From the IMG/VR virus record IMGVR_UViG_2713896905_000004, positions 1-64,000 of that record: a stretch of DNA of 64,000 nt; one strand, 5' to 3'. The position numbers and the translations under genes are program-made. Shown piece after piece: positions 25,000-60,056 of the stretch (positions within the stretch are counted from its first letter, which is position 1; each line of letters starts with the position of its first letter). The notes beneath the pieces were generated by a model. It ran no database searches and had not been told where the DNA came from. It saw only the letters and a list, made by a program, of their open reading frames with translations. This stretch comes from a virus (lineage: Duplodnaviria > Heunggongvirae > Uroviricota > Caudoviricetes).

Positions 25000-25016
25000 A
25001 AATTAATTAGAGCAAT
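25000..25016. promoter_or_regulatory. C1 repressor operator-like 17-mer (reverse orientation ATTGCTCTAATTAATTT)
   Basis: Matches P1 C1 operator consensus ATTGCTCTAATAAATTT at 16/17; located in divergent ssb/lyz intergenic region. Confidence 0.6.
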
Positions 25017-25149
25017 AATGTATATCTTTGAAACGTAGCTAACAAGTGATTTGCATTATCCTGTGCCTTCTAAAGGGATCGAGTCAGTCGGTATTGGCTG
25101 TGAATGGGTGTTTGTCCTGGAGCGTAAAAAATTCGCTTATGAGGTCTTT

Positions 25150-25707
25150 ATGAAGGGAAAAACAGCCGCAGGAGGCGGTGCAATTTGCGCTATCGCGGTG
25201 ATGATTACCATCGTGATGGGGAATGGCAATGTGCGAACCAACCAGGCGGGGCTTGAGCTTATCGGAAACGCTGAAGGTTGCCGACGTGATCCATACATGT
25301 GCCCGGCGGGTGTATGGACTGACGGGATTGGTAATACACACGGGGTAACGCCAGGCGTGCGAAAAACCGACCAGCAAATCGCCGCTGATTGGGAAAAGAA
25401 TATCCTGTTCGCTGAACGCTGTATTAACCAGCACTTTCGGGGTAAAGACATGCCCGATAATGCCTTCAGCGCAATGACAAGCGCGGCATTCAATATGGGA
25501 TGCAATAGTTTACGGACCTACTACAGCAAAGCGCGAGGCATGCGAGTCGAAACCTCCATCCACAAGTGGGCGCAGAAAGGGGAATGGGTGAATATGTGTA
25601 ACCATCTCCCTGATTTCGTGAACAGTAACGGCGTCCCCCTGCCCGGATTAAAGATTCGCCGTGAAAAAGAACGCCAGCTTTGCCTGACGGGGCTGGTCAA
25701 TGAATAA
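25150..25707 (+). CDS. lyz: SAR endolysin (T4-lysozyme-like muramidase with N-terminal signal-arrest-release segment)
   Basis: 'MKGKTAAGGGAICAIAVMITIVMGNGNVRT' Gly/Ala-rich SAR domain then lysozyme core; GAGGT RBS before ATG 25150; matches P1 Lyz (185 aa). Confidence 0.85.
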   Translation: MKGKTAAGGGAICAIAVMITIVMGNGNVRTNQAGLELIGNAEGCRRDPYMCPAGVWTDGIGNTHGVTPGVRKTDQQIAADWEKNILFAERCINQHFRGKDMPDNAFSAMTSAAFNMGCNSLRTYYSKARGMRVETSIHKWAQKGEWVNMCNHLPDFVNSNGVPLPGLKIRREKERQLCLTGLVNE

Positions 25708-25954
25708 ACTCCGGCAGCTCCGCCGACTTTCGACAATGAAGTTATCGCTGGCGGCGATAGTTTTCGACTCGATTTTCATGGCGGTATATGTGCTCAATGA
25801 GACGTGGCCACTGGAACCGCTATTATATGCCGGGCTTCGGCTGTGCCTGACATTTTTGAGCATGGCTGCAAGATTGATGCAGCAGAAAGAAACCGCTTCA
25901 GATTGCCCACGTCGCGCGGTGCGCAAATATATGGCACGCAGGCGAAGGCGATAA
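25700..25954 (+). CDS. small membrane protein overlapping lyz 3' end (84 aa), possible lysis accessory
   Basis: Two hydrophobic helices and Arg-rich C-terminus 'RKYMARRRRR'; ATG overlaps lyz stop. Confidence 0.35.
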   Translation: MNKLRQLRRLSTMKLSLAAIVFDSIFMAVYVLNETWPLEPLLYAGLRLCLTFLSMAARLMQQKETASDCPRRAVRKYMARRRRR

Positions 25955-25998
25955 TAGTTAACGAGAACCCCGGCAGCCGCCGGGGTTATTTTTGGTGG

Positions 25999-27048
25999 TT
26001 ATTTAAACGGATTGATTGAATTATTAAACGTGATGATGCTTGTCTCACGCGGTGCCTGGACGTTAGCCGCTTGCGGAACCTCCTTAATTTTCTTGGTGAC
26101 AGGCAAGTTGCGTGCGCCAACTTTGATCAGAGATTCGAAAAGTGTGGCAACGATTTTTGCATCACCAGGTTCTTTGAGGCGGAATGCGTCTTTTTGGGCT
26201 GCGGAGACGAAGATTGGGAGGTTATCCAGTTCGTCTTGCATCGCTGCCAGCACATCGTCGCGGATACCCGCTGTTTTCTCCAGCAAAGCGATTCGCGCTT
26301 CAGCATCTGCGATCTTGGCCATTGCTTCGAGGTGGCGGCCCTGGCTTTCGAGTAGTGCGGTTTCCAGTTCTGCCGTACGCTCTGTCGCCTCCACCATCAT
26401 TTCCAGTTCAGCCATTTTGCCGTAATGGGATATAACTGCCTGCACTGACTCGTCGGAGTACCCATGCGCCGCCAGGGACTCTGCCAGTAGAGATTTAGAA
26501 TCCGCGCTTTCAAACATTCCGGCGCTGGCAGGATGATCCAGACTGATATAGTTCGGCGTTGTCACATAATCCACACCATGGAAGCTGGTGGTTACAGCGA
26601 TTTTCCCGGACTCGCGCCCGCCAGTGGCCCAGCTCCAGCCACCAGCTCGGCTTTCGATCATCGCGGCGACAATTTTACCCGGCTCTGTGTTAAGAATTTC
26701 CTGTGTATGGGTAACAATGCCGTTGTCGTCAACAGATATAGCCACTGTTCGGCACGCTGGAACATTGTCGATTACGACCGGGCGACCTTCCACCATGATC
26801 ACGCTGGTTTCTGGTACTTCCAGTTTACCGGTAAGCTGTCGGCGACCGTGACCGTAATAGCCGAAAAGCTCACCAAGGCGTAAACCTTCCTGAGTTTCCT
26901 TGCTTTCAAGCATGGTCTTTACCGCGCTTAAGACGTACTGTCGCCCGTTCTGGCGACCTTTTCGAGCATTGCTATAGAGACAAAAGCGGTCAGTGACCGT
27001 TTTCAAAACATCAGTCATTATCGTTTCCCTCTTTAAAGACCGATTCAA
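25999..27048 (-). CDS. pro: head morphogenesis protein (P1 Pro-like; start probably at Met 27018)
   Basis: Position between lyz and portal gene as in P1; call is by synteny and size. Confidence 0.55.
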
Positions 27049-28720
27049 GGATTTGCGCCAGTTCCTGTGGCGGTGTTTTGATGATGGAATCCATCAGGTG
27101 ATCGTCGTCCTCGCTTTTAGCTTTCAGTTCTTTCACCAGTGCTTCAGAGATTTTTTCGTCAATCTCCAGCACATCGCTGAACAGGTAACGTTTGAAAGCA
27201 TCAGAATTAGCGAGGACGCTGTTATTGCTGACAGCATCGAGGATTTGCGTAACGATGGTGGCGTAGTTCGCCTGCGAGTCGCGGTTATCGTTGTGCTCTT
27301 GTTGCAGAGCGGTATTAACGGAGTGGAATTCGATTTTGTACGGGCGATCACCTTCCGGGTATACCTTGCCGTACTTGAAAGCAAGATGAATATCGATAGC
27401 CCGCAGAATGAACTCATCTACGCCCTGCTGGATCCATGAGGCGCGCATGGCGGCCTGAATTGCCGTGCGCAGGAATCCACCTTCACCAAGCCCGCCGGAC
27501 ATTTGATCTGCCCACCCCAGGAGGGTGTAATCGAGGCCAAGTGCTGCCGCCAGCTGGCGCATATAAGTGAGAATGTCTTCAATGCCGTTGATGTCAGCCT
27601 GGATGGTCTGAGTATCAATCGTCATTTGCCCCTTGCCGTCGCCCATAATAGGCAGCAGGGTATTGGTCACCGTAGGCATGTTATTCGCGCCGCGTGCGCG
27701 CTTTTCCATCAGGTCAGCTGCTCGTTTAAGCGTCTGAGTAATGGTGCGTGAATAATCGGCTGCTTTTACCGGATCCAGACTATTCATCGCCAGACCGATG
27801 ATTCGGTCAATTTTCGACGCATTAAAACGCGTTGCCTTCAGCGAGCGGATCGCCGAACGCAGATTCATGTACGGCTCGTAGGCGTATTCGAGCAAGCTGG
27901 TCCCGTAATTCTGGGTTTCAATCGGCGTGCGCTCTTCCGGGTTATCCAGCAGGCTGTAAGCCTTATGGCCAGTGTGCACAGGCATAAGGTTTGACTTAGG
28001 CCGCCAGTAGGGGATTTTCATAGGGATAATGGTCCACGGATCGGCGAAAACCATTTTCCCTGACGCGTCCTTCAGATAATCGCCGCTAAATCCCGCCAGG
28101 TTACCGCTGACCTCGAACTCTTTGATGAAGCCCGGAAGGGTGTAATAGGAGCACTCAAAAGACGTGATCCCTATTCCTTCTTTGGCGTATGGCCTGACAT
28201 AAGCCACCCCAAATACAGACATGATAAATGCCCACCCGGCGACCTCTTTGTTGATGGTTCGCCCGATGTCGTTCATCAGCTCGTCACACAACGCCTGCGC
28301 GGCGTCATAGTCACTATCGTTTCCGTTGTGTACCGGCACGATAGAGAAGGTTTGTCCGGTCTTCTTATCGAAAGAGAGCGCGTGCGTAATATGGATGTTC
28401 AGCGCGGTGGCGATCGTGCTGTAAACCGCCATCTCTTCGAGTAGCGGATAGCGTTGCAAGCGGTCTTCCGGCAGTTGAACTTCATCAAAGATAAAGCGAC
28501 TTCCGTCCACCAGCCCATCGCCAGCCATGCCACTATCGCCCGGTTTGCCGCCTAAGAAGCCGGACAGTTGTACCGGTGCCCCTGCGCGAGAAAACAAATA
28601 CCCACTTCCGCCGTGCACAGCCAGCGCGGACAGGAGGATGTTGTCCCGTTCTCCGTTGTCTTTAAAAACCCCCGCCAGCGCCTTCCTGACCGAGGATAGC
28701 GTGATTTTATTGTCTGCCAA
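27011..28720 (-). CDS. prt: portal-like head protein (569 aa)
   Basis: Large head-gene ORF upstream of pro on the same strand; synteny with P1 prt. Confidence 0.6.
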
Positions 28721-28795
28721 GATTGCACCTTAATTAGAATAATTCGCATCGTGTTTGAACGGAATTTAACACTAGTCACTTGTTAAGGATTACCA

Positions 28796-59756: not shown

Positions 59757-59757
59757 T

Positions 59758-59976
59758 TCAAAGTTCCGTATTAGCTTGTGCTTCGGTCATTTTTCCTAAG
59801 TATGAAGGAGGAAGGACTACGCAATTTGTATCCAGTCCCTCACCTATGGCAGCCTGTAAAATTCTGGCTAAGGTGAGTCTCTTGTTGCGATACCTGGTGA
59901 TGACATGCCTGATACCGCCGGTCGGCGTAACAAAGGCGATCAGCCAGTAGTGATATTTCCGTCGGAATGGCCACAT
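59758..59976 (-). CDS. small protein (72 aa)
   Basis: ORF immediately downstream of the operators at 59991/60040. Confidence 0.4.
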   Translation of the reverse strand: MWPFRRKYHYWLIAFVTPTGGIRHVITRYRNKRLTLARILQAAIGEGLDTNCVVLPPSYLGKMTEAQANTEL

Positions 59977-59990
59977 AGTGCACCTTGTAG

Positions 59991-60007
59991 ATTGCTCTAA
60001 TAAAAAA
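59991..60007. promoter_or_regulatory. C1 operator
   Basis: 'attgctctaataaaaaa' direct-orientation consensus core. Confidence 0.65.
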
Positions 60008-60027
60008 CGTGATGAGTGTACATCACG
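60008..60027. terminator. terminator hairpin CGTGATG-AGTGTA-CATCACG flanked by A/T runs
   Basis: Inverted repeat between two operators, downstream of the 60058 gene stop. Confidence 0.45.
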
Positions 60028-60039
60028 TTTTAAAAATAT

Positions 60040-60056
60040 GGAATTATTAGAGCAAT
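60040..60056. promoter_or_regulatory. C1 operator
   Basis: 'ggaattattagagcaat' = reverse complement ATTGCTCTAATAATTCC. Confidence 0.6.

Follow-up and report, generated by a model that had tools for sequence, protein, structure and literature searches.

The 17-bp words scattered over the window analysed here, a stretch of 64,000 nucleotides of caudoviricete DNA (IMG/VR record IMGVR_UViG_2713896905_000004, positions 1 to 64,000), are very probably the dispersed asymmetric operators of the repressor C1 in a P1-like (Punavirus) phage-plasmid. The picture is that of the known C1 operator network of P1 in a new mosaic relative, with the known mechanism unchanged. The additions are modest: a candidate site before c8, a second immI-type module with its own predicted operator, and a weakened Op83. 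An initial annotation of this stretch had listed ten matches to the consensus ATTGCTCTAATAAATTT and read them as C1 operators at the heads of immunity-controlled transcription units, an interpretation that proved right in outline, incomplete, and wrong in two details, concerning the site at 39121 and a GNAT gene.

All ten listed words match ATTGCTCTAATAAATTT with one to three mismatches at the positions given, and all ten are intergenic. When up to three mismatches were allowed, the scan found 13 matches in the window; 100 dinucleotide-preserving shuffles gave an expectation of 0.35, with a largest count of 2 and none that reached 13. At most one mismatch left three matches against 0 expected. 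We then used a log-odds matrix trained on the 20 monovalent C1 operators (some of which form bivalent pairs) curated in the P1 GenBank record AF234172. This record lists Omat as 18 nt on the minus strand (P1 2628-2645); its sequence, CATGCACTAATAAATAT, actually reads on the P1 plus strand at 2628-2644, and the entry was corrected before matrix building. In a scan with this position weight matrix, 15 sites of the window reached 14 bits or more, clearly above the background of 0.63 given by 100 first-order Markov simulations. The ten listed sites scored 19.3 to 26.6 bits, each with an exact chance expectation of about 0.02 or less per window. Exact tail expectations per window were 7e-5 at 26.3 bits, 3e-4 at 24.8, 0.02 at 19.3, and 0.035 at 18.6, and every site of at least 18.6 bits lay between 7e-5 and 0.035.

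Thirteen sites (Ossb, Omat, Oref, Oc1a to Oc1e, Olpa, OpmgT, OpmgRa, OpmgRb, and O26), plus a weakened Oppp, are orthologous to curated P1 operators (Table 1). Alignment to P1 showed that the operator and its annotated promoter hexamers are kept in each of the 12 operator regions of P1 that the window includes. In the P1/P7 nomenclature the operators are Op2a/b, Op21, Op51, Op53, Op55, Op68, Op72ab, Op82, Op83, Op86ab, Op88, Op94, and Op99a-e, renamed Oref to Oc1e in the P1 genome record AF234172; the P1 operators Op51, Op53, Op55, Op68, and Op72 map outside the window, and a related plasmid carries all five there. Nearly all sites stand at the heads of operons, as had been claimed, and the labels lyz/ssb, ref, coi-c1, lpa, and accessory operon hold. 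The list of ten was nevertheless incomplete by five or six sites, among them the c1 autoregulatory pair Oc1a/b and Omat: it lacked 37979 (20.7 bits), 41461 (14.6 bits), 41633 (23.7 bits) with its overlapping partner at 41644-41660, 63664 (25.4 bits), 28850 (18.6 bits), and the degenerate 62757 (13.2 bits).

Table 1. Operators, candidate operators, regulators, and cargo genes located in the window.
Feature	Position	Strand	Remarks
GT4 glycosyltransferase	13871-15019	-	Glycosyltransferase (GT) cassette; "lipopolysaccharide N-acetylglucosaminyltransferase" in PLSDB relatives
Hexapeptide acetyltransferase	15006-15557	-	GT cassette
Helix-turn-helix (HTH) open reading frame (ORF)	15582-15911	-	GT cassette
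Ossb/Op21	25000-25016	-	Identical to P1 Ossb, 26.3 bits; would control ssb (24980 to 24492) and same-strand ORFs to 21711
Operator-like site in darB	28850-28866	-	5' end of darB, opposite strand; ATTGCCCTAATATATTT, 18.6 bits, 0.035 expected per window
lxc (bof), C1 co-repressor (immT)	36034-36282	+	82/82 residues identical to P1 Lxc
GNAT gene	36402-37007	-	GNAT domain match; starts 147 nt after mat, same strand
Omat/Op2b	37979-37995	-	Identical to P1 Omat, 20.7 bits; upstream of Pmat/LPmat, then mat (37943 to 37155) and the GNAT gene (37007 to 36402)
Oref/Op2a	38645-38661	-	16/17 vs. P1 Oref, 23.9 bits; inside P2ref, would control ref (38546 to 37986)
Candidate operator "Oc8"	39121-39137	-	Between cre stop (39155) and c8 start (39104); ATTGCTCTAATTATTTT, 24.8 bits, 3e-4 expected
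Oc1e/Op99e	41086-41102	-	16/17 vs. P1 Oc1e, 25.0 bits; adjoins P4cre, hexamers identical
Oc1d/Op99d	41169-41185	+	Identical to P1 Oc1d, 26.1 bits; unit imcA/B, coi, c1
coi, C1 inactivator	41424-41633	+	69 aa, 67/69 identical to P1 Coi
Oc1c/Op99c	41461-41477	+	Inside coi; identical to P1 Oc1c, 14.6 bits; flanks 37/37
Oc1ab/Op99ab, bivalent	41633-41660	.	Over Pc1, predicted c1 autoregulation; Pc1 hexamers identical to P1
Oc1a	41633-41649	+	Identical to P1, 23.7 bits
Oc1b	41644-41660	-	16/17 vs. P1
c1, repressor predicted to read the operators	41744-42595	+	283 aa, 281/283 identical (99.3%) to P1 C1.100
ant, antirepressor	42628-43746	-	372 aa; Pfam ORF6N and ANT/KilAC; ~60% identical to P1 Ant1
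icd-like ORF	43743-43964	-	73 codons, as P1 icd; 54/73 (74%) identical; a2/b2 targets over the ribosome-binding site
C4 antisense RNA	44019-44106	-	Rfam RF01695, 75.9 bits vs. gathering 45; model positions 1-87 of 87
isrK-type leader RNA	44131-44208	-	Rfam RF01394, 60.8 bits vs. gathering 50; a1/b1 decoy targets
Candidate Oc4/Op51-type operator	44283-44299	-	TTTGCTCTAATGAATTG, 19.3 bits, 0.022 expected; heads second immI-type module
Olpa/Op94	47590-47606	-	Identical to P1 Olpa, 19.4 bits; overlaps Plpa -35, would control lpa (47519 to 47067)
OpmgT/Op88	57899-57915	-	16/17 vs. P1 OpmgT, 26.6 bits; over P2pmgT/P1pmgT, promoter hexamers identical
OpmgRb/Op86b	59991-60007	+	Identical to P1, 21.5 bits
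OpmgRa/Op86a	60040-60056	-	Identical to P1, 22.7 bits, flanks 102/103; over PpmgR -35, would control pmgR and pmgS
Oppp/Op83, weakened	62757-62773	+	TATGTACTAATTAATTT, 13.2 bits vs. P1 CATGCACTAATTAATTT, 20.5 bits; downstream of PpmgN
O26/Op82	63664-63680	+	Identical to P1 O26, 25.4 bits, flanks 101/101; between gene 26 (LP26) and pmgL

By megablast the window falls in the P1 group (Punavirus: P1, P7, SJ46, RCS47, and vB_EcoM-673R5). It is collinear with P1 AF234172 in reverse orientation, running from P1 46628 to 1 and then from 94800 to 78208, with an identity of ca. 92 to 98% over most of its length. DNA without a P1 counterpart occupies 10581-15978, 21678-22796, 23583-24290, 36299-37153, 40190-40601, ~42595-44304, 50669-51068, and 51302-57628, and no PLSDB or phage record spans more than 92% of window positions 36000 to 60000. 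The element encodes C1, Coi, Lxc, and Lpa, the last identical to P1 Lpa at 149 of 150 residues. With regulators so close to their P1 counterparts, the operator model of P1 is transferable to the window; the words are C1-operator sequences of a P1-type immunity system, as had been claimed. Also retained, each where expected, are eight P1-type late promoters (LPsit, LPs, LPdar, LPlyz, LPpro, LPmat, LPpac, and LP26), LexA boxes at 40963-40978 (P2coi) and 49948 (lxr/humD), and loxP at 41007-41040.

Compared with P1 and P7, the 17-bp asymmetric consensus, the near-identical repressor, and the accessory regulators Coi, Lxc, and Lpa are thus shared, and the 13 orthologous sites, including the bivalent Oc1ab, match in position relative to genes and promoter hexamers. 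Three features set the window apart: before c8, a site of consensus quality that in P1 and P7 is a C7A variant; next to immC, an additional Op51-type operator candidate; and in Op83, a weakening C5T change. What follows Op21, Op2b, Op99e, and Op88 is also different from P1, with, respectively, an ORF with a Tad2-like domain, the GNAT gene, an ORF of 131 aa, and an accessory operon of mosaic make-up.

P1 has 22 operators with a 17-bp asymmetric consensus to which C1 binds; Lxc reinforces this binding, Coi and Ant1/2 inactivate C1, and Ant synthesis is in turn repressed by the c4 RNA (PMC8546580). Thermal inactivation of C1.100 in P1 raises ssb, dmt, kilA, ban, and ref transcripts as measured by rt-qPCR (PMC4713147). 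Transferred to the window, the plasmid-prophage state would be one in which C1 with its co-repressor Lxc occupies each operator. Most operators overlap or abut sigma-70 -35/-10 hexamers, and C1 would thereby block early or lytic units: ssb with its downstream ORFs, mat, ref, probably c8, cra-cre, coi-c1, the C4-icd-ant module, lpa, the Op88 accessory operon, pmgR-pmgS, pmgN-ppp-pmgQ, and pmgL/gene 26. At Oc1ab, c1 would also repress itself. All Lpa-dependent late promoters should be under indirect C1 control because lpa itself lies behind Olpa. Release would come through Coi, linked to LexA via P2coi, and through Ant, whose translation the C4 antisense RNA would hold down.

Several points weigh against so direct a transfer. 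C1 binding is known for the P1 orthologous operators from the literature behind the GenBank annotation (PMC8546580); in this element, binding and the expression state of each unit are predictions from sequence and that literature, and for the three sites without a curated P1 ortholog (39121, 44283, and 28850) from sequence alone. There is some circularity in the matrix scores of the 13 orthologous sites, whose P1 counterparts are in the training set. Conservation in relatives was rejected as weak evidence for the new sites, the contigs being too alike overall to tell operators from their flanks. The word at 62757 lies below the chance threshold on its own (0.74 such matches expected) and is credible only as a positional ortholog. 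Only 44283, among the three sites outside the P1 map, overlaps a readable promoter. The site at 39121 offers a -10-like TCTAAT and no convincing -35, and it is degenerate in P1, in P7, and in six of 29 IMG/VR P1-like contigs that we retrieved via the conserved c8 start. The site at 28850 is in coding DNA and has a C at position 6, found in none of the 20 curated operators.

Around the orthologous operators, promoter elements were conserved even where the flanks had diverged. The Ossb region keeps the P2ssb/P1ssb hexamers and LPlyz identical to P1 (104/105 identity), with lyz as the divergent neighbour behind LPlyz, and the Pmat -35/-10 and the LPmat -22 box are likewise identical. In P2ref the -10 TATAAT is retained although the surrounding region is just 117/142 identical to P1. 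Oc1d fills the P1coi spacer, with a TTGACA -35 directly upstream and a conserved -10; Plpa is identical to P1, with Olpa flanks of 109/110; and at both Op86a and Op88 the operator itself supplies the promoter -35, TTGCTC. In Oppp, the C5-to-T change alters a position conserved in 19 of the 20 operators. A weak inverted match on the minus strand (62768-62784, 10.8 bits) overlaps 62757 with an offset of 11 bp, the geometry of the bivalent Oban-ab and Oc1-ab; in P1, Op83 is annotated as monovalent.

Three of these units deserve a further remark. A strong GC hairpin followed by T8 lies on the minus strand between Oref/P2ref and the ref start codon (window 38560-38577); it fits the attenuator control of ref that a 1988 paper by Windle et al., listed among the references of PMC4713147, names in its title. 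The unit behind Oc1e contains cra, an inserted 131-aa ORF, and cre. This ORF (40183-40578, minus strand) sits in a 404-bp insertion relative to P1 and gave no Pfam or PADLOC match; judged by operator spacing, contigs L007 and L019 share the insertion. Finally, the label pap/coiled-coil operon given to the Op86 sites holds, with the reservation that a strong terminator-like hairpin at 58474-58446 parts pmgR-pmgS from pap, which speaks against simply assigning pap to the Op86 unit.

Of the sites outside the P1 map, the one in darB is the least convincing. A fortuitous match preserved by coding constraint is more likely there than a functional C1 site, and we lean towards it with some reserve. 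Opposite in strand to darB, the word spans about codons 19 to 24 of the gene. The P1 sequence at this place, ATTGCCCTAATGTATTT, is similar, has no operator annotated there or nearby, and differs from the window at position 12, inside the site. These observations, with the unusual C at position 6, have to be set against a score that chance would rarely produce in a window of this size and against a location ca. 70 to 90 bp from the divergent PdarB/LPpro control region.

The site at 39121 is probably a C1 operator whose counterpart in the laboratory phages P1 and P7 is degenerate. It had been assigned to the cra/cre side; it is in fact located past the cre stop codon, 16 nt before c8, and the operator on the cra/cre side is Oc1e at 41086. 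The word in the window differs from the proven Ossb by a single mismatch. P1 and P7 carry ATTGCTATAATTATTTG here, in which the near-invariant C7 is replaced by A and a perfect TATAAT is formed, and neither the P1 nor the P7 record has an operator annotated at this position. The core ATTGCTCTAATT is intact in 23 of the 29 contigs, with C7A in three and A9G, at an invariant position, in the other three. The P1/P7 variant, the A9G contigs, and the lack of a readable -35 upstream in the window would all be in keeping with a c8 promoter element (a -10-like TCTAAT/TATAAT) or a neutral relic, with c8 free of direct C1 control. We regard this alternative as possible but rather unlikely given the score of the window version, its closeness to Ossb, and the 23 independent contigs with an intact core. 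Moreover, the proven P1 operator OrepL/Op53 contains its promoter -10 as TCTAAT, and the roles of operator and promoter element are not exclusive.

The site at 44283 had been labelled icd-ant, and a full C4-icd-ant module is indeed found behind it, inserted between pacB and c1. Each of its deviating bases occurs in some proven operator, and its 3' end overlaps a putative -35 (TTGTGT), followed after 17 nt by a -10 (TACATT). The isrK-type leader downstream ends in a terminator-like hairpin (44152-44136), the icd-like ORF is joined to ant through an ATGA overlap, and ant has nucleotide homology to P1 48497-49721. Between the C4 loops and their targets, GGCCAA is complementary to TTGGCC/TTGGTC, and CCTTGGAC to GTCTAAGG. 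The parts of the module follow the order of the P1/P7 immI region (Oc4/Op51, P51a/b, a1/b1, c4 RNA, a2/b2, icd, ant1/2): an operator over the promoter, a leader with decoy targets, the C4 RNA, targets over the icd ribosome-binding site, and a 73-codon icd coupled to an Ant of the ANT/KilAC type. In contrast to P1 and P7, the module lies between pacB and c1, whereas the canonical copy lies between sim and kilA; its leader is classed as isrK rather than c4-a1b1, and its Ant carries an ORF6N domain. The canonical position (sim to kilA-repL) is outside the window, and a related plasmid has a canonical copy there.

An ant insert at the pacB-c1 position is already known for pTZ20_1P and RCS47 (PMC6906374); what is new here is the regulatory anatomy of the module. 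Of about ten informative contigs, five have the same insert with its operator-promoter stretch, as do 673R5, RCS47, and JL22, and the site is present as TTTGCTCTAATAAATTG in five related contigs. The module also shares features with the isrK/C4 antirepressor modules of lambdoid (Shiga toxin [Stx] and Gifsy-type) phages, namely the Rfam isrK match and, over part of its length, ca. 76% nucleotide similarity to Stx-phage regions annotated "regulatory protein / antirepressor antB"; it differs from them in being headed by a P1-type C1 operator sequence and embedded in a P1 backbone. That resemblance, the absence of the module at this position from P1, P7, and SJ46, and the fact that 44283 was the lowest scoring of the ten listed sites, as the initial annotation had recognised in calling it weaker, could point to an inert remnant of a lambdoid prophage with an incidental operator-like word. 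We consider such a remnant improbable: all parts are intact, from the full-length C4 and leader to the 73 codons of icd and the Ant joined to it, 372 aa long and with its two domains, the targets are complementary to the C4 loops and covary with them in contig L006, the operator-promoter stretch is conserved in five other contigs, and 44283 sits exactly where Oc4/Op51 sits in P1 immI.

In contig L006, both C4 loops and both a/b target pairs have changed together while the operator and promoter are unchanged. This variant module (L006 1175-1560) is a natural heteroimmune allele and amounts to a natural covariation test of the RNA switch. The C4 loops of the window module differ from those of P1 C4 and of the canonical copy in the related plasmid, and the second module probably constitutes a separate C4 specificity. 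By crude duplex energies, which were used only to separate the module from P1 C4 given that the window and L006 modules partly cross-react, the cognate pairs were the most favourable with one exception (L006 C4 on the window a2b2 leader, -28.2, against -28.0 for the cognate pair).

The mechanical ORF list contained a 187-aa frame (43743-44306, minus strand) that we rejected as spurious, because it reads through the C4 and isrK RNA genes, leaving a plausible gene only in the last 73 codons. Its Pfam match to Phage_ASH (PF10554, residues 35-126) was disregarded for the same reason. Most of the matched stretch (as far as residue 114 or so) comes from translation of the leader and C4 RNA genes and not of the 73-codon icd, and the Phage_ASH family model may be partly derived from miscalled ORFs.

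Further modules were noticed in relatives. Contigs L014, L027, L028, and L032 have another insertion between ref and mat with extra operators (ca. +2160 to +2300 from the c8 anchor), one of them the perfect consensus ATTGCTCTAATAAATTT. At least two contigs hold another C4 gene ca. 2 kb from c8 on the ref/mat side (L007 6-91 and L014 1951-2036), and a c4-a1b1 leader was also detected in L014. This brings the locations of immI-type modules in the phage group to as many as three.

For the set as a whole, the possibility that the words are chance occurrences of an AT-rich motif in equally AT-rich intergenic DNA, without common function, is negligible: weak matrix hits of 7 to 11 bits do occur often, the low-GC GT cassette being one example, but no shuffle came near the observed count, a background of 38% GC and 7 kb of intergenic DNA gives expectations of 1.6e-4 to 0.016 for scores of 24.8, 19.3, and 18.6 bits, and thirteen of the sites fall on curated P1 operators.

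From the c8 site and the second immI module it would seem that wild relatives are not fully represented by the reference P1 map. We put forward as a tentative idea, about which we are somewhat doubtful, that the C1 regulon of natural P1-like phage-plasmids exceeds the textbook P1/P7 map by a c8 operator and by a second C4/Icd/Ant module of different specificity. If this were true, an operator before c8, a putative lysogeny-establishment gene, would have been lost in P1 and P7 through the C-to-A change that makes a perfect -10, and the second module, under its own C1 operator next to immC, would provide an additional, independently lockable lysis-lysogeny trigger.

In Enterobacteriaceae, cargo genes, among them resistance genes, are commonly carried by P1-like phage-plasmids. 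Whether a cargo gene stands behind a C1 operator or late promoter or behind a promoter of its own predicts what the lysogen expresses. In the window, the cargo predicted to lie in C1-controlled or late units comprises the Tad2-like ORF behind ssb, the Op88 accessory operon, and probably the GNAT gene behind mat.

The GNAT gene had been described, together with the GT/acetyltransferase cassette, as having no operator nearby. This does not apply to the GNAT gene: it follows mat on the same strand with no terminator-like or promoter-like site found in the gap, and it is therefore placed behind Omat, Pmat, and LPmat, probably within a C1-controlled or late unit. The locus (36299-37153) is a hot-spot that holds the EcoP1 res/mod genes in P1 and, in other relatives, RelA/SpoT-domain, SIR2, YaaC, or type III restriction-modification genes.

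The statement was accurate for the GT cassette (13871-15911, minus strand, 34 to 38% GC), which replaces cin and the invertible C-segment of P1. Between 4062 and 22671 the matrix scored nothing higher than 10.9 bits, and promoter-like sites belonging to the cassette itself occur at 15955-15884. It appears to be autonomous and may plausibly serve as a lysogenic-conversion (surface-modification) unit. The Escherichia albertii plasmid p2RM9973 carries a cassette 100% identical to it and is ca. 97% identical to the window elsewhere, with a different structure.

In the ssb unit, ssb is followed by four ORFs, and no minus-strand terminator-like site was found between 24980 and 21711. One of these ORFs (23593-24294, minus strand, 233 aa), in non-P1 DNA, has a C-terminal Tad2-like (Thoeris anti-defence 2) domain (PF11195, E value 2.7e-21) and is possibly an anti-defence gene with early expression during lytic growth.

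The accessory operon behind Op88 covers ca. 6.2 kb on a single strand (57720 to 51614) and ends at a strong terminator-like hairpin (51603-51574). Its ORFs are Ead/Ea22-like, DUF551, or without a Pfam match, and this downstream DNA is not in P1. An identical 29-nt Op88-promoter stretch was present in 76 viral contigs. Among 47 sequences (45 contigs with enough downstream DNA, P1, and the window), 35 different arrangements followed it, and the region (window 51302-57720, loci L037-L113) is a repressor-gated, extreme recombination hot-spot. It shares segments with lambdoid Stx phages.

A PADLOC scan of ten cargo proteins returned no matches. Outside the operator-headed units, a 289-aa protein (12344-13213, plus strand) has a macro domain (PF01661, E value 2e-19); its gene lies between a tail-fibre gene (8829-12347) and a tail-fibre assembly gene (13232-13816), an unusual place for an ADP-ribose-binding or hydrolase domain.

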